Shown: positions 408 through 58,017 of the stretch, one piece after another | How positions within the stretch are numbered: the first letter of the stretch is position 1 | Layout: each line of letters opens with the position of its first letter | Notes under the pieces: generated by a model | The model's database searches: none | What the model was told of the DNA's origin: nothing | What the model saw: only the letters and a program-made list of their open reading frames with translations | Assembly: GCF_057098645.1 (NCBI RefSeq) | Contig: NZ_CM169472.1 | Direction: 5' to 3' (one strand) | Length of the DNA stretch: 64,000 bases | Made by a program: the position numbers and the translations under genes

Positions 408-1501
<1,094 letters not shown>

Positions 1502-1504
1502 GCC

Positions 1505-1933
1505 ATGGCCAGAGCGCGTGGACGAGGTCGTCGCGATCTCAAGTCCGAAATCAACATTGTACCGTTGCTGGACGTACTGCTGGTGCTGTTGCTGATCTTT
1601 ATGGCGACAGCGCCCATCATCACCCAGAGCGTGGAGGTCGATCTGCCAGACGCTACTGAATCACAGGCGGTGAGCAGTAACGATAATCCGCCAGTGATTG
1701 TTGAAGTGTCTGGTATTGGTCAGTACACCGTGGTGGTTGAGAAAGATCGCCTGGAGCGTTTACCACCAGAGCAGGTGGTGGCGGAAGTGTCCAGCCGTTT
1801 CAAGGCCAACCCGAAAACGGTCTTTCTGATCGGTGGCGCAAAAGATGTGCCTTACGATGAAATAATTAAAGCACTGAACTTGTTACATAGTGCGGGTGTG
1901 AAATCGGTTGGTTTAATGACGCAGCCTATCTAA
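1505..1933 (+). CDS. tolR: TolR
   Basis: 142 aa, MARARGRGRRDLKSEINIVPLLDVLLVLLLIFM... Confidence 0.95.
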   Translation: MARARGRGRRDLKSEINIVPLLDVLLVLLLIFMATAPIITQSVEVDLPDATESQAVSSNDNPPVIVEVSGIGQYTVVVEKDRLERLPPEQVVAEVSSRFKANPKTVFLIGGAKDVPYDEIIKALNLLHSAGVKSVGLMTQPI

Positions 1934-1997
1934 ACATCTGCGTTTCCCTTGCTTGAAAGAGAGCGGGTAACAGGCGAACAGTTTTTGGAAACCGAGA

Positions 1998-3263
1998 GTG
2001 TCAAAGGCAACCGAACAAAACGACAAGCTCAAGCGGGCGATAATTATTTCAGCAGTGCTGCATGTCATCTTATTTGCGGCGCTGATCTGGAGTTCGTTCG
2101 ATGAGAATATAGAAGCTTCAGCTGGAGGCGGCGGTGGTTCGTCCATCGACGCTGTCATGGTTGATTCAGGTGCGGTAGTTGAGCAGTACAAACGCATGCA
2201 AAGCCAGGAATCAAGCGCGAAGCGTTCTGATGAGCAGCGCAAGATGAAGGAACAGCAGGCTGCTGAAGAACTGCGTGAGAAGCAAGCGGCTGAACAGGAA
2301 CGCCTGAAGCAACTTGAGAAAGAGCGGTTAGCTGCTCAGGAACAGAAAAAGCAGGCTGAAGAAGCCGCAAAACAGGCCGAGTTAAAGCAGAAGCAAGCGG
2401 AAGAGGCGGCAGCGAAAGCGGCGGCAGATGCTAAAGCGAAGGCCGAAGCGGATGCTAAAGCTGCGGAAGATGCAGCGAAGAAAGCGGCTGCAGATGCGAA
2501 GAAAAAAGCAGAAGCAGAAGCCGCCAAAGCCGCAGCCGAAGCGCAGAAAAAAGCCGAGGCAGCAGCTGCGGCGCTGAAGAAGAAAGCGGAAGCGGCAGAA
2601 GCAGCTGCAGCTGAAGCAAGAAAGAAAGCGGCAACTGAAGCTGCTGAAAAAGCCAAGGCAGAAGCTGAGAAGAAAGCGGCTGCTGAAAAGGCTGCAGCTG
2701 ATAAGAAAGCGGCAGCAGAGAAAGCTGCAGCCGACAAAAAAGCAGCAGAAAAAGCGGCTGCAGAAAAGGCAGCAGCTGATAAGAAAGCAGCGGCGGAAAA
2801 AGCCGCCGCAGACAAAAAAGCGGCAGCTGCAAAAGCAGCAGCTGAAAAAGCCGCTGCAGCAAAAGCTGCCGCAGAGGCAGATGATATTTTCGGTGAGCTA
2901 AGCTCTGGTAAGAATGCACCGAAAACGGGGGGAGGGGCGAAAGGGAACAATGCTTCGCCTGCCGGGAGTGGTAATACTAAAAACAATGGCGCATCAGGGG
3001 CCGATATCAATAACTATGCCGGGCAGATTAAATCTGCTATTGAAAGTAAGTTCTATGACGCATCGTCCTATGCAGGCAAAACCTGTACGCTGCGCATAAA
3101 ACTGGCACCCGATGGTATGTTACTGGATATCAAACCTGAAGGTGGCGATCCCGCACTTTGTCAAGCTGCGTTGGCAGCAGCTAAACTTGCGAAGATCCCG
3201 AAACCACCAAGCCAGGCAGTATATGAAGTGTTCAAAAACGCGCCATTGGACTTCAAACCGTAA
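1998..3263 (+). CDS. tolA: TolA, with long Ala/Lys/Glu-rich helical domain II
   Basis: 421 aa, MSKATEQNDKLKRAIIISAVLHVILFAALIW..., repetitive (A/K/E)n domain at about 2300-2880, GTG start. Confidence 0.95.
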   Translation: MSKATEQNDKLKRAIIISAVLHVILFAALIWSSFDENIEASAGGGGGSSIDAVMVDSGAVVEQYKRMQSQESSAKRSDEQRKMKEQQAAEELREKQAAEQERLKQLEKERLAAQEQKKQAEEAAKQAELKQKQAEEAAAKAAADAKAKAEADAKAAEDAAKKAAADAKKKAEAEAAKAAAEAQKKAEAAAAALKKKAEAAEAAAAEARKKAATEAAEKAKAEAEKKAAAEKAAADKKAAAEKAAADKKAAEKAAAEKAAADKKAAAEKAAADKKAAAAKAAAEKAAAAKAAAEADDIFGELSSGKNAPKTGGGAKGNNASPAGSGNTKNNGASGADINNYAGQIKSAIESKFYDASSYAGKTCTLRIKLAPDGMLLDIKPEGGDPALCQAALAAAKLAKIPKPPSQAVYEVFKNAPLDFKP

Positions 3264-3395
3264 TCGCGATGTTGACTGTTCCGACGGTCAACATCAGGCA
3301 CCGGTTGCCACGGGGTTCTGGTAGTTTTGTGTATTTTAGTTTGTTAACATTCTGCTAAATTATCGTGGGCCATCGGTCCAGATAAGGGAGATATG

Positions 3396-4688
3396 ATGAA
3401 GCAGGCATTACGAGTAGCATTTGGTTTTCTCATACTGTGGGCATCAGTTCTGCATGCTGAAGTCCGCATTGTGATCGACAGCGGTGTAGATTCCGGTCGT
3501 CCTATTGGAGTTGTTCCTTTCCAGTGGGCGGGCCCTGGTGCGGCACCTGAAGATATTGGCGGCATCGTTGCTGCCGACTTGCGTAACAGCGGTAAATTTA
3601 ATCCGTTAGATCGCGCTCGTCTGCCACAGCAGCCGGGTAGTGCGCAGGAAGTACAACCAGCTGCATGGTCCGCGCTGGGCATTGACGCTGTAGTTGTCGG
3701 TCAGGTCACTCCGAATCCGGATGGTTCTTACAATGTTGCTTATCAACTTGTTGACACTGGCGGCGCACCGGGTACTGTACTTGCTCAGAACTCGTACAAA
3801 GTGAACAAGCAGTGGCTGCGTTATGCTGGTCATACCGCCAGTGATGAAGTGTTTGAAAAACTGACCGGTATTAAAGGTGCGTTCCGTACCCGTATTGCCT
3901 ACGTTGTTCAGACCAACGGCGGTCAGTTCCCGTATGAACTGCGCGTATCTGACTATGACGGTTACAACCAGTTTGTCGTTCACCGTTCACCACAGCCGCT
4001 GATGTCCCCGGCGTGGTCACCAGACGGTTCTAAACTGGCTTATGTGACCTTCGAAAGCGGTCGTTCCGCGCTGGTTATCCAAACGCTGGCAAACGGCGCT
4101 GTACGTCAGGTGGCTTCATTCCCGCGTCACAACGGTGCGCCTGCATTCTCGCCAGACGGCAGCAAACTGGCATTCGCCTTGTCGAAAACCGGTAGCCTGA
4201 ACCTGTACGTAATGGATTTGGCTTCTGGCCAGATCCGCCAGGTGACTGATGGTCGCAGTAACAATACCGAACCGACCTGGTTCCCGGACAGCCAGAACCT
4301 GGCATTTACTTCTGACCAGGCCGGTCGTCCACAGGTTTATAAAGTGAATATCAACGGCGGTGCGCCACAACGTATTACCTGGGAAGGTTCGCAGAACCAG
4401 GATGCGGATGTCAGCAGCGACGGTAAATTTATGGTAATGGTCAGCTCCAACGGTGGGCAGCAGCACATTGCCAAACAAGATCTGGCAACGGGAGGCGTAC
4501 AAGTTCTGTCGTCCACGTTCCTGGATGAAACGCCAAGTCTGGCACCTAACGGCACTATGGTAATCTACAGCTCTTCTCAGGGGATGGGATCCGTGCTGAA
4601 TTTGGTTTCTACAGATGGGCGTTTCAAAGCGCGTCTTCCGGCAACTGATGGACAGGTCAAATTCCCTGCCTGGTCGCCGTATCTGTGA
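3396..4688 (+). CDS. tolB: TolB periplasmic beta-propeller protein
   Basis: [21 protein letters not shown] signal peptide; 430 aa from the second ATG of the ORF. Confidence 0.95.
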
Positions 4689-4698
4689 TAATAATTAA

Positions 4699-5244
<546 letters not shown>

Positions 5245-5253
5245 GAGAATTGC

Positions 5254-6045
5254 ATGAGCAGTAACTTCAGACATCAACTATTGAGTCTGTCGTTACTGGT
5301 TGGTATAGCGGCCCCCTGGGCCGCTTTTGCTCAGGCACCAATCAGTAGTGTCGGCTCAGGCTCGGTCGAAGACCGCGTCACTCAACTTGAGCGTATTTCT
5401 AATGCTCACAGCCAGCTTTTAACCCAACTCCAGCAACAACTCTCTGATAATCAATCCGATATTGATTCCCTGCGTGGTCAGATTCAGGAAAATCAGTATC
5501 AACTGAATCAGGTCGTGGAGCGGCAAAAGCAGATCCTGTTGCAGATCGACAGCCTCAGCAGCGGTGGTGCAGCGGCGCAATCAACCAGCGGTGATCAAAG
5601 CGGTGCGGCGGCATCAACGACGCCGACAGCTGATGCTGGTACTGCGAATGCTGGCGCGCCGGTGAAAAGCGGTGATGCAAACACGGATTACAATGCAGCT
5701 ATTGCGCTGGTGCAGGATAAATCCCGCCAGGATGACGCAATGGTGGCATTTCAGAATTTCATCAAAAATTACCCTGATTCAACTTACCTGCCAAACGCCA
5801 ATTATTGGCTGGGTCAGTTAAACTACAACAAGGGTAAAAAAGATGATGCGGCGTACTATTTTGCTTCGGTAGTGAAAAACTATCCGAAGTCACCAAAGGC
5901 TGCAGATGCGATGTTTAAAGTCGGCGTCATCATGCAGGACAAAGGTGACACCGCAAAAGCGAAAGCCGTATACCAGCAGGTTATCAGTAAATACCCTGGT
6001 ACTGATGGCGCTAAACAGGCGCAAAAACGTCTGAACGCGATGTAA
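5254..6045 (+). CDS. cpoB: CpoB (YbgF), TPR-containing cell-division coordinator
   Basis: 263 aa, signal peptide, coiled-coil then TPR-like C-terminus; last gene of tol-pal. Confidence 0.9.
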   Translation: MSSNFRHQLLSLSLLVGIAAPWAAFAQAPISSVGSGSVEDRVTQLERISNAHSQLLTQLQQQLSDNQSDIDSLRGQIQENQYQLNQVVERQKQILLQIDSLSSGGAAAQSTSGDQSGAAASTTPTADAGTANAGAPVKSGDANTDYNAAIALVQDKSRQDDAMVAFQNFIKNYPDSTYLPNANYWLGQLNYNKGKKDDAAYYFASVVKNYPKSPKAADAMFKVGVIMQDKGDTAKAKAVYQQVISKYPGTDGAKQAQKRLNAM

Positions 6046-6209: not shown

Positions 6210-6285
6210 GGGTCGTTAGCTCAGTTGGTAGAGCAGTTGACTTTTAATCAATTGGTCGCAGGTTCGAATCCTGCACGACCCACCA
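6210..6285 (+). tRNA. lysT: tRNA-Lys (anticodon UUU)
   Basis: GGGTCGTTAGCTCAGTTGGTAGAGCAGTTGACTTTTAATCAATTGGTCGCAGGTTCGAATCCTGCACGACCCACCA; cloverleaf with encoded CCA. Confidence 0.9.
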
Positions 6286-6320
6286 CTAACCTAGTTAGTT
6301 GTAGTATCCAGCGTAGTATC

Positions 6321-6396
6321 GGGTGATTAGCTCAGCTGGGAGAGCACCTCCCTTACAAGGAGGGGGTCGGCGGTTCGATCCCGTCATCACCCACCA
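6321..6396 (+). tRNA. valT: tRNA-Val (anticodon UAC)
   Basis: GGGTGATTAGCTCAGCTGGGAGAGCACCTCCCTTACAAGGAGGGGGTCGGCGGTTCGATCCCGTCATCACCCACCA. Confidence 0.9.
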
Positions 6397-6398
6397 CC

Positions 6399-6474
6399 GG
6401 GTCGTTAGCTCAGTTGGTAGAGCAGTTGACTTTTAATCAATTGGTCGCAGGTTCGAATCCTGCACGACCCACCA
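6399..6474 (+). tRNA. lysW: tRNA-Lys (UUU)
   Basis: Identical 76-nt tRNA-Lys unit, 2 nt after valT. Confidence 0.9.
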
Positions 6475-6525
6475 CTAATTACGGTGGGTTCGGTGGAAGT
6501 AGTTTGTAGTATCCAGCGCAGTATC

Positions 6526-6601
6526 GGGTGATTAGCTCAGCTGGGAGAGCACCTCCCTTACAAGGAGGGGGTCGGCGGTTCGATCCCGTCATCACCCACC
6601 A
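6526..6601 (+). tRNA. valZ: tRNA-Val (UAC)
   Basis: Identical 76-nt tRNA-Val unit. Confidence 0.9.
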
Positions 6602-6604
6602 CTC

Positions 6605-6680
6605 GGGTCGTTAGCTCAGTTGGTAGAGCAGTTGACTTTTAATCAATTGGTCGCAGGTTCGAATCCTGCACGACCCACCA
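6605..6680 (+). tRNA. lysY: tRNA-Lys (UUU)
   Basis: Identical 76-nt tRNA-Lys unit. Confidence 0.9.
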
Positions 6681-6733
6681 ATTTTAACATCAAACTCAGA
6701 TGTTAAGCGTGAAGGATAACGTTGCGCCAGCAA

Positions 6734-6778
6734 CGGCCCGTAGGGCGAGCGAAGCGAGTCATCCTGCACGACCCACCA
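6734..6778 (+). repeat. tRNA-Lys 3-prime-end remnant repeat, copy 1
   Basis: CGGCCCGTAGGGCGAGCGAAGCGAGTCATCCTGCACGACCCACCA ends in the last 17 nt of tRNA-Lys; near-identical copy at 7123..7166. Confidence 0.6.
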
Positions 6779-6826
6779 ATCTTAAAGATTGGCCCCGAGT
6801 AAAAATCTTTCAGGTAACACCCGTAT

Positions 6827-6902
6827 GGGTCGTTAGCTCAGTTGGTAGAGCAGTTGACTTTTAATCAATTGGTCGCAGGTTCGAATCCTGCACGACCCAC
6901 CA
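6827..6902 (+). tRNA. lysZ: tRNA-Lys (UUU)
   Basis: Identical 76-nt tRNA-Lys unit. Confidence 0.9.
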
Positions 6903-6935
6903 TCCTGAATGATTAAAGCAGCATAATCCCGCAAG

Positions 6936-7011
6936 GGGTCGTTAGCTCAGTTGGTAGAGCAGTTGACTTTTAATCAATTGGTCGCAGGTTCGAATCCTGC
7001 ACGACCCACCA
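6936..7011 (+). tRNA. lysQ: tRNA-Lys (UUU)
   Basis: Identical 76-nt tRNA-Lys unit, last of the array. Confidence 0.9.
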
Positions 7012-38092: not shown

Positions 38093-38225
38093 TTTTTGGG
38101 ACTCCTGGCTGATTAAGTATGTCGATAAGGCGTTTCCATCCGTCACGTAATTTACGGGTGATTCGTTCAAGTAAAGATTCGGAAGGGCAGCCAGCAACAG
38201 GCCACCCTGCAATGGCATATTGCAT
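38061..38225 (-). CDS. cIII: Lambda cIII (FtsH inhibitor)
   Basis: 54-aa ORF beginning MQYAIAGWPVAGCPSESLLER, overlapping kil by 32 nt as in lambda; below the ORF-track cutoff. Confidence 0.85.
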   Translation of the reverse strand: MQYAIAGWPVAGCPSESLLERITRKLRDGWKRLIDILNQPGVPKNGSNNYGYPD

Positions 38226-38297
38226 GGTGTGCTCCTTATTTATACATAACGAAAAACGCCTCGAGTGAAGCGTAATTGGTATGCGGTAACGCCGCGC

Positions 38298-41617: not shown

Positions 41618-42508
41618 TCAGGCTGCCAGATCATTATTTCCGATGGAAGCATAATAAGCTTTTTCTGCTTCTGCCGGAGGAATATGGCCCAGCCTTTCCA
41701 GCAATCGTCGATTGTTATACCAGTCCACCCACGTGAGTGTGGCCAGTTCCACTTCTGCACGGTTTTTCCAGCTCTTACGGTGTATTACCTCCGCTTTGTA
41801 AAGACCATTGATGCTCTCCGCCATCGCGTTGTCATACGAGTCGCCAGTACTCCCTGTTGATGCCAGTAATCCGGCTTCCTTAAGCCGCTGCGTGTAGGCC
41901 AGCGATACATACTGAGAACCTTTATCACTGTGATGGATTGTGCCGGACGGCCGACGGGCCCACAACGCCTGCTCCAGTGCATCCAGCACGAATGTTGTTT
42001 CCATGGATGATGAGACCTGCCATCCCACGATGTATCCGGCGAACACATCAATGATGAACGCCACATAAACGAAGCCCCGCCATGTGCTGACGTAAGTAAA
42101 ATCAGCCACCCACAGCTGGTCAGGTCGTTCTGCCACGAACTGACGGTTTACGCGGTCGCCTGCGGCAACGGCTTTCCGGCTGATGGTCGTACGGACCTTT
42201 TTACCCCGGAGAACACCGGCAAGTCCCATAACTGCCATGAGACGTGCCACAGTGCATCTGGCCACTCTGATACCTTCCCGTAACAACTGACGCCAGACTT
42301 TACGCACACCGTATACCTGGTGATTTTCATCGTATACGCGCTGTATCTCTTTCTTCAGCCAGTCATCGTGCTGCGCACGGGCACTGCGTTTATCCGGATG
42401 ATGTCGCTGTTGCTGACAGTGGTAATACGTTGACGGGGCAATATGCAGTTCGCTGCATAGCGGTCCGACCCCGTACTGCTCACGCAGCTTATCCAGCAGT
42501 GGCATCAT
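41618..42508 (-). CDS. IS629-like transposase OrfB (DDE/integrase domain)
   Basis: 296-aa ORF with IS3-family DDE region ([10 protein letters not shown]...[11 protein letters not shown]). Confidence 0.85.
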
Positions 42509-42831
42509 TTTTTCCAGAGGCGGTCGAACTCCGCCTTCGCAAAATAAGCGGAAGCCTGGCGAAGGATATCGTTACTGCGGCGCAGTTCACGATTTTCACG
42601 CTCCAGCTCTTTCAGACGCTGACGTTCAGCGGTGGTGAGCCCGCCATCACCGCCCCCGGTATCCCGCTCATGCTGGCGAACCCAGACACGCAGAGTCTCC
42701 GGCGTACAGCCAATCTTTGGAGCAATGGAACAAATTGTCGCCCATTGTGAGTCATATTCATCCTGACTTTCCAGAACCATACGAATCGCCCGCTGACGGA
42801 CTTCGGGGGAAAAACGAGTATTTTTAGTCAT
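42505..42831 (-). CDS. IS629-like transposase OrfA (HTH)
   Basis: 108 aa, [50 protein letters not shown]... Confidence 0.85.
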
Positions 42832-52728: not shown

Positions 52729-53756
<1,028 letters not shown>

Positions 53757-53760
<4 letters not shown>

Positions 53761-54197
53761 TGCCACTGCTGGATAAGCTGCGTGAGCAGTACGGGGTCGG
53801 ACCGCTATGCAGCGAACTGCATATTGCCCCGTCAACGTATTACCACTGTCAGCAACAGCGACATCATCCGGATAAACGCAGTGCCCGTGCGCAGCGCGAT
53901 GACTGGCTGAAGAAAGAGATACAGCGCGTATACGATGAAAATCACAAGGTATACGGTGTGCGTAAAGTCTGGCGTCAGTTGTTACGGGAAGGTATCAGAG
54001 TGGCCAGATGCACTGTGGCACGTCTCATGGCGGTTATGGGACTTGCCGGTGTTCTCCGGGGTAAAAAGGTCCGTACGACCATCAGCCGGAAAGCCGTTGC
54101 CGCAGGCGACCGCGTAAACCGTCAGTTCGTGGCAGAACGACCTGACCAGCTGTGGGTGGCTGATTTTACTTACGTCAGCACATGGCAGGGCTTCGTG
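53757..54197 (+). pseudogene. IS629-like OrfB, N-terminal part (copy 2), interrupted by IS21-family insertion
   Basis: Matches copy-1 OrfB up to ...[14 protein letters not shown], then reads into the foreign element. Confidence 0.8.

Positions 54198-57303: not shown

Positions 57304-58017
<714 letters not shown>

Follow-up and report, generated by a model that had tools for sequence, protein, structure and literature searches.

A polymorphic in-frame tandem repeat in the helical domain II of the Escherichia coli force transducer TolA

An Ala/Lys/Glu/Asp-rich coding tract in the window, i.e., the whole 64-kb stretch of DNA that was analysed, almost certainly corresponds to the helical domain II of the force transducer TolA, and its 3' part to an in-frame VNTR. 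This tract, its polymorphism and its phenotypes are already known, and have been experimentally characterised since 2012 (PMC3477136).

The tandem-repeat (TR) region of tolA was described by Zhou, Michiels and Aertsen (PLoS One 2012; PMC3477136). The tolA gene of strain MG1655 has 13 units of 15 or 18 bp, and 234 isolates carried 8-16 units, with 13 units in 66% of them (PMC3477136). Engineered alleles of 2-39 units all keep some function, and all rescue the SDS and osmotic phenotypes; deoxycholate tolerance spans four orders of magnitude and climbs with copy number, 0.6 M NaCl at pH 5 is best tolerated by strains with 6-13 units, and plating of phage fd is highest at 13 units (PMC3477136). 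Contractions arise at a frequency of 6.9e-5, which falls to 15% of that value in recA, rises 3.3-fold in uvrD and is unaffected by mutS (PMC3477136).

The K-12 protein (Levengood et al. 1991; PMC3477136) resembles the window allele in having 421 aa and 13 units of 15/18 nt, and differs from it by one residue. At the nucleotide level, the two tolA loci are separated by 21 substitutions over 1501 nt (98.6% identity).

Gene identity, domains and neighbourhood of tolA

The open reading frame (ORF) at 1998-3263 is tolA, and no evidence contradicts this identity. Its product matches the Pfam TolA C-terminal family along the full profile (PF06519; E=2e-38, aa 325-419, profile positions 1-96 of 96). 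With the NCBIfam TolA equivalog NF007065 its score is 554 bits (cut-off 213), and with TIGR02794 it is 309 bits (cut-off 59). The structure of full-length E. coli TolA (PDB 9k49_H) matches residues 1-421 with E=5.9e-227, and the domain III structures 1tol, 1s62, 2x9a and 3qdp match at E<=3e-59. When complete E. coli genomes were searched by megablast, the closest to the window was that of an O145 strain (99.9% identity). RefSeq places the tolA CDS at identical coordinates in K-12 and in the O145 strain, and annotates the same CDS in 5,425 genomes. Pfam searches with seven neighbouring ORFs, together with the RefSeq annotation under the match, gave the gene order ybgC-tolQ-tolR-tolA-tolB-pal-cpoB, which fills the first 6.1 kb of the window. 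The gene, its two terminal domains and its partners are as follows.

809-1501, plus strand: tolQ (Pfam MotA_ExbB), inner-membrane motor partner of TolA
1505-1933, plus strand: tolR (Pfam ExbD), inner-membrane motor partner of TolA
1998..3263, plus strand: tolA CDS, GTG start, 421 aa plus stop (ORF list, Pfam PF06519, NCBIfam NF007065, RefSeq coordinates)
1998..2099, plus strand: domain I, N-terminal transmembrane anchor, aa 1-34 (AlphaFold2 helix 3-34; translation)
2970..3254, plus strand: domain III (TolA C-terminal), aa 325-419 (Pfam PF06519; solved structures)
3393-4688, plus strand: tolB (Pfam TolB_N/PD40, beta-propeller), outer-membrane-side partner
4723-5244, plus strand: pal (Pfam OmpA), outer-membrane-side partner
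5254-6045, plus strand: cpoB/ybgF (Pfam TolA_bind_tri/TPR), outer-membrane-side partner

The helix of domain I bears a Ser18-His22-Leu29-Ser33 (SHLS) motif, read off the translation; this motif, which binds the TolQR motor, was defined in PMC10666116. The whole protein was modelled with AlphaFold2 (AF2), run on the single sequence and used for secondary structure alone (pTM 0.25). Domain II was predicted as two long helices, residues 60-193 and 197-302, with block pLDDT values of 70-89, mostly 85-89. On its N-terminal side lies a linker at low confidence (34-60), and on its C-terminal side a disordered Gly/Asn/Ser linker (306-331) followed by the small alpha/beta domain III. Because this is a single-sequence model with a pTM of 0.25, the mutual arrangement of the two domain II helices (straight or folded back) is unreliable.

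As predicted, TolA would belong to the gamma-proteobacterial type with an extended alpha-helical domain II. Domain II is summarised as an extended alpha-helical domain spanning the periplasm in PMC10666116 and PMC12204202, both citing Levengood 1991, and the same work is cited in PMC3477136 for CD evidence of helicity. A structured domain II is required for outer-membrane stabilisation (PMC10666116). A 2025 survey reported TolA domain II lengths from 110 to 335 residues across Proteobacteria, the helical form being mainly gamma-proteobacterial (PMC12204202).

An Rfam scan for structured RNA gave no match within tolA (1998-3263). Elsewhere in the window, the CpoB/ybgF RNA thermometer (5145-5283, plus strand; 142 bits) lies across the pal-cpoB junction, and seven tRNA genes (Lys-Val-Lys-Val-Lys-Lys-Lys; 6210-7011, plus strand) follow cpoB, together with a match to RtT RNA (6612-6778). 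A lambdoid prophage is implied further along the window by a lambda CIII thermoregulator element (38180-38238, minus strand). The two strands each carry an ALIL pseudoknot (42434-42550, minus; 53715-53831, plus) with the same score, which suggests two copies of an IS3-family element, and a match to the isrC sRNA occurs at 57745-57867 on the minus strand.

Composition and periodicity of the tract

The tract comprises the following features, including two ORFs on the opposite strand.

2300..2880, plus strand: Ala/Lys/Glu/Asp-rich tract, aa 101-295, in helical domain II (composition, T-poverty, shuffle tests, predicted helices)
2385..2654, plus strand: upstream degenerate repeats with periods of 24, 36 and 45 nt and matches of 65-88% (TRF; find_repeats families D2 and D4)
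2670..2876, plus strand (3' end ~2876): classical tolA tandem-repeat array of 13 imperfect 15- or 18-nt units, K1-2 A3-4 (E/D/A) (unit parse, TRF, primer positions)
2336..3010, minus strand: antisense ORF of 224 aa, A/F/S-rich and of low complexity, arising from composition and not a gene (ORF list, codon shuffles)
2455..2919, minus strand: antisense ORF of 154 aa, L/Q/P-rich and of low complexity, arising from composition (ORF list, codon shuffles)

Residues 101-295 include 96 Ala, 44 Lys, 29 Glu and 9 Asp among 195 positions, i.e., 91% A/K/E/D. With 6.7% T (window median 25%), 2300-2880 is the most T-poor of all 581-nt stretches in the 64-kb window. Splitting the protein at each Lys run yields 13 units in the order KKAAAE, KAAAD, KKAAAE, KAAAD, KKAAE, KAAAE, KAAAD, KKAAAE, KAAAD, KKAAAA, KAAAE, KAAAA and KAAAE. 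These are head-to-tail in-frame units, 13 of 15/18 nt, as in the reference allele. The strongest arrays found by TRF have a period of 15 nt with 13.2 copies (2668-2875), 33 nt with 3.3 copies, and 78 nt with 2.0 copies at 86% match. The primers published for delimiting the TR region match the window at 2664-2683 (0 mismatches) and 2849-2870 (1 mismatch).

As a control for periodicity, we used 1000 codon shuffles that kept amino-acid composition and codon usage. In the core (2655-2875), autocorrelation reached z values of 4.4-6.1 at lags of 15, 33, 48, 78, 96 and 111 nt, and none of the 1000 shuffles attained the observed maximum. The region 2300-2654 is biased but weakly periodic; its best value, z 3.7 at 42 nt, was reached by 4 of the 1000 shuffles. 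A uniform strong periodicity across 2300-2880 is thus rejected by the shuffle test, the strong signal being confined to 2655-2876.

One could suppose that the tract is merely compositionally biased, i.e., Ala/Lys/Glu low complexity devoid of tandem-repeat ancestry, with a periodicity that follows from helix-forming residue patterns. The weak signal of 2300-2654 and the TRF matches of just 65-88% there would agree with this reading, and for the tract as a whole we regard it as very improbable: lags of 15, 33, 78 and 111 nt in the core stand at z 4.9-6.1 with no shuffle reaching the maximum, the 78-nt period shows an 86% match, and natural insertions of 12-33 nt duplicate the adjoining units exactly. 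For the core, the shuffle test shows units agreeing at the codon level beyond what constraint on the amino acids would produce by itself.

The long antisense ORFs follow from the composition of the tract, since shuffles give equal lengths. When codons 101-295 were shuffled, the longest stop-free antisense stretch averaged 231 aa, compared with the 225 observed, and at least 150 aa was found in 91% of shuffles. The trinucleotides TTA, CTA and TCA, which are stops on the opposite strand, occur just five times in the tract, and the antisense strand at tolA is without an annotated feature in any RefSeq record inspected. Taken at face value, lengths of 224 and 154 aa might speak for a true overlapping gene at 2336..3010 or 2455..2919. 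We consider this exceedingly improbable given that shuffled codons produce equally long stretches, the translations are of low complexity, the antisense lengths shift with every tolA indel, and the RefSeq records inspected leave the ORFs unannotated; the codon-shuffle control rules out genuine antisense genes here. The gene is a clear case of a T-poor, Ala-rich coding repeat that yields long spurious antisense ORFs, which gene finders must ignore.

These results bear on a preliminary description of the same DNA, made from the sequence alone. It had placed a repetitive Ala/Lys/Glu-coding tract in tolA at 2300-2880, in agreement with the identity of the gene, the 91% A/K/E/D content and the shuffle-tested repeats, and it had called the antisense ORFs spurious, as the shuffles bear out. 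Its strong nucleotide periodicity holds for the last ~210 nt (2670-2876) and fails for 2300-2654, where periodicity is weak. The proposed AAEKAAAD KK unit was right as to repetition and is corrected here to a 5-6-residue K1-2 A3-4 (E/D/A) unit, often paired into the 11-residue KKAAAEKAAAD.

Allele lengths and extent of the variable zone in E. coli genomes

Positions 1900-3400 were compared by megablast with 5,426 complete E. coli genomes, and the locus was present in 5,425. Two systematic samples were taken down the ranking, with different queries and 59 full-length places each (n=118), and allele length was taken from the distance between the tolR end and the tolB start. The frequencies below reflect a database biased to clinical and outbreak lineages.

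421 aa: 81/118, 68.6% (95% CI 59-77%)
436 aa: 13/118, 11%
432 aa: 5/118, 4%
394 aa: 4/118, 3%
404 aa: 3/118, 2.5%
416 aa: 3/118, 2.5%
426 aa: 2/118, 1.7%
429 aa: 2/118, 1.7%
392, 400, 406 and 424 aa: 1/118 each, 0.8% each
frameshifted tolA: 1/118, 0.8%

A targeted search added a further allele, of 405 aa, in ~17 genomes, giving at least 13 in-frame tolA length classes of 392-436 aa. The window allele, with 13 units and 421 aa, is the commonest. Both the 69% share of the modal allele and the range of 392-436 aa (roughly 8-16 units) reproduce the figures of PMC3477136. Of the 37 non-modal spans, all are divisible by 3 except one, which has a 1-nt deletion that shifts the frame. The 436-aa allele (+45 nt) is found in near-identical form (at least 99%) in 524 of the 5,425 genomes, ~10%, and its abundance suggests one over-represented clonal lineage.

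For protein and nucleotide alignments, 17 alleles were fetched, the first 15 of which were used to assess the invariance of domains I and III. These two domains are protein-identical in the 15 alleles except for one G46D change. The in-frame indels are confined to one zone.

2411..2867, plus strand: zone holding every in-frame indel among 17 fetched E. coli alleles (protein and nucleotide alignments)

The preliminary description had viewed domain II as a long helical spacer that varies in length between strains. The predicted helices 60-193 and 197-302 and the literature are in accord with the former, and the range of 392-436 aa, with the length difference lying entirely within the tract, with the latter. 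It had also proposed comparing repeat number with other E. coli alleles; with at least 13 length classes, that number is not identical in all strains.

Indels upstream of the classical array include +12 nt after 2411, +24 nt after 2426 and -87 nt at 2508-2594. As they occur as far upstream as 2411, the variable zone extends over ~460 nt and not ~210 nt. The sequence gained in insertions of 12, 15, 24 and 33 nt repeats the neighbouring copy in tandem without a mismatch (identity 1.00), and the 45-nt insertion of one allele (L010) is just 78% identical to its following copy. Deletions range from 3 to 87 nt and are flanked by 0-12 nt of exact direct repeat. Two O157:H7 alleles of 404 and 424 aa (L011 and L015) differ by a single 60-nt in-frame block and 0 substitutions over 1450 nt, which points to a recent change within the clone.

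It is scarcely conceivable that all tolA genes share one allele and that their apparent differences in length arose from errors of assembly or alignment in a low-complexity repeat. Repeats are error-prone in assembly, and one record does carry a 1-nt frameshift; this lone frameshift lies outside the tract, however, and the remaining 36 non-modal spans keep the reading frame. In addition, alleles recur in independent complete genomes (436 aa in 524, 405 aa in 17), and independent PCR sizing of 234 isolates gave 8-16 units (PMC3477136). In-frame indels, recurrence and PCR sizing together rule out assembly artefact as the cause of the length variation. The frameshifted record (NZ_CP115376.1) has its 1-nt deletion in a G-run at ~2927, just 3' of the tract, and RefSeq annotates the gene as frameshifted; this may represent a sequencing error or a true pseudogene.

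In laboratory selection no contraction of units 12-13 was seen; YbgF/CpoB binding was proposed to require these units. Laboratory deletions can extend upstream of the array (Zhou et al., PMC3477136). Among natural alleles, one of 405 aa (NZ_CP032986.1) has a deletion of 2796-2843 and is found in ~17 genomes from birds, pigs, humans and wastewater, and one of 406 aa (NZ_CP011416.1) has a deletion of 2823-2867 and occurs in one genome. Distal-unit deletions of either kind (2796-2843 or 2823-2867) are present in ~0.3% of complete genomes.

Substitutions are also unevenly distributed. Compared with K-12, the window tolA has 14 synonymous differences per 135 sites in 2300-2880 and 5 per 155 elsewhere in the gene, a ~3-fold difference (Fisher p=0.017), and its only nonsynonymous change is E/D at aa 158. 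The synonymous excess in the tract might come from intragenic conversion between repeats, or from compensating indels that resemble substitutions. In one further reading, which we hold to be somewhat less likely than not, the hypervariable zone is ~2x the classical array, distal units of the proposed CpoB/YbgF-binding segment are lost in ~0.3% of genomes, and the synonymous excess perhaps stems from conversion. If this is true, a PCR-sized 'TR number' under-describes tolA alleles, and the distal-unit requirement for CpoB binding needs revisiting. Upstream indels, distal-unit deletions and synonymous excess are small additions beyond the published picture, and they leave the verdict on the tract unchanged.

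Proposed mechanism and significance of length variation

In the mechanism that we propose, the K1-2 A3-4 (E/D/A) units make up a long alpha-helical stalk. This stalk connects the domain I helix, whose S18-H22-L29-S33 face engages the proton-driven TolQ-TolR motor in the inner membrane, with domain III, the part that engages TolB/Pal at the outer membrane. Gain or loss of 5-6-residue units alters the length of the stalk and leaves both ends undisturbed. With the textbook helical rise of 1.5 Å per residue, one 5-residue unit corresponds to ~7.5 Å. For a stalk that forms one uninterrupted straight helix, the natural 44-residue range would amount to ~66 Å.

In the same mechanism, the imperfect 15/18-nt repeats, along with the higher-order periods of 33, 78 and 111 nt, supply misaligned homology. 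RecA-dependent unequal exchange between such homeologous repeats, and probably some slippage, then generates in-frame expansions and contractions. The RecA dependence, the contraction frequency of ~7e-5 and the phenotypes are taken from the literature (PMC3477136). Slippage between perfect repeats cannot cover every event, because several deletions have 0-2 nt of exact flanking homology. Perfect-repeat slippage as the sole mechanism is weakened by these short flanks, and the published homeologous RecA-dependent recombination fits better.

We infer that the 13-unit allele is held modal by opposing selective pressures. The alternative is that length variation is neutral, i.e., that domain II is a permissive spacer, that drift or hitch-hiking with clonal lineages sets allele frequencies, and that the repeat lacks a contingency-locus function. 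This we think rather unlikely, and it has facts in its favour: a spacer that neutrally tolerates length change would yield a similar pattern, alleles follow lineages (436 aa in 524 genomes; 404/424 aa in O157:H7), chimeric and lengthened domain II constructs keep partial function (PMC10666116), and engineered variants across the whole 2-39-unit series rescue the SDS and osmotic phenotypes (PMC3477136). Neutrality does not sit easily, however, with a 421-aa allele that is modal at ~69% across hosts and lineages despite a contraction frequency near 1e-4, nor with a natural range (392-436 aa) that is narrow against the laboratory-viable 2-39 units. Moreover, the published phenotypes with deoxycholate, with NaCl at pH 5 and with phage fd vary with copy number (PMC3477136). 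TolA stalk length is among the few naturally tunable dimensions of trans-envelope force transduction, and has been linked to bile-salt tolerance and to the entry of filamentous phages and colicins. The tolA repeat can be used for typing, and its natural variants offer a way to study how periplasm-spanning length affects outer-membrane stabilisation.

Two known systems are of interest for comparison. TonB is a homologous force transducer with a common three-domain plan, whose central domain, which spans the periplasm, likewise consists of repeats and varies in length (PMC10666116, PMC12204202). Its domain II is partly interchangeable with that of TolA (PMC10666116, PMC12204202) but differs in consisting of Glu-Pro/Lys-Pro repeats that form a polyproline II helix, whereas TolA has an alpha-helix, and the two domains share no sequence similarity. 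Like the in-frame VNTRs and contingency loci of bacterial surface proteins, tolA has units whose length in nt is divisible by 3, varies in copy number among strains and shows measurable instability within clones. In contrast to contingency loci, the tolA units are imperfect and each is unique in sequence, change is mainly RecA-dependent and not by slipped-strand phase variation, and the variation tunes the length of the protein in place of an on/off switch of expression.
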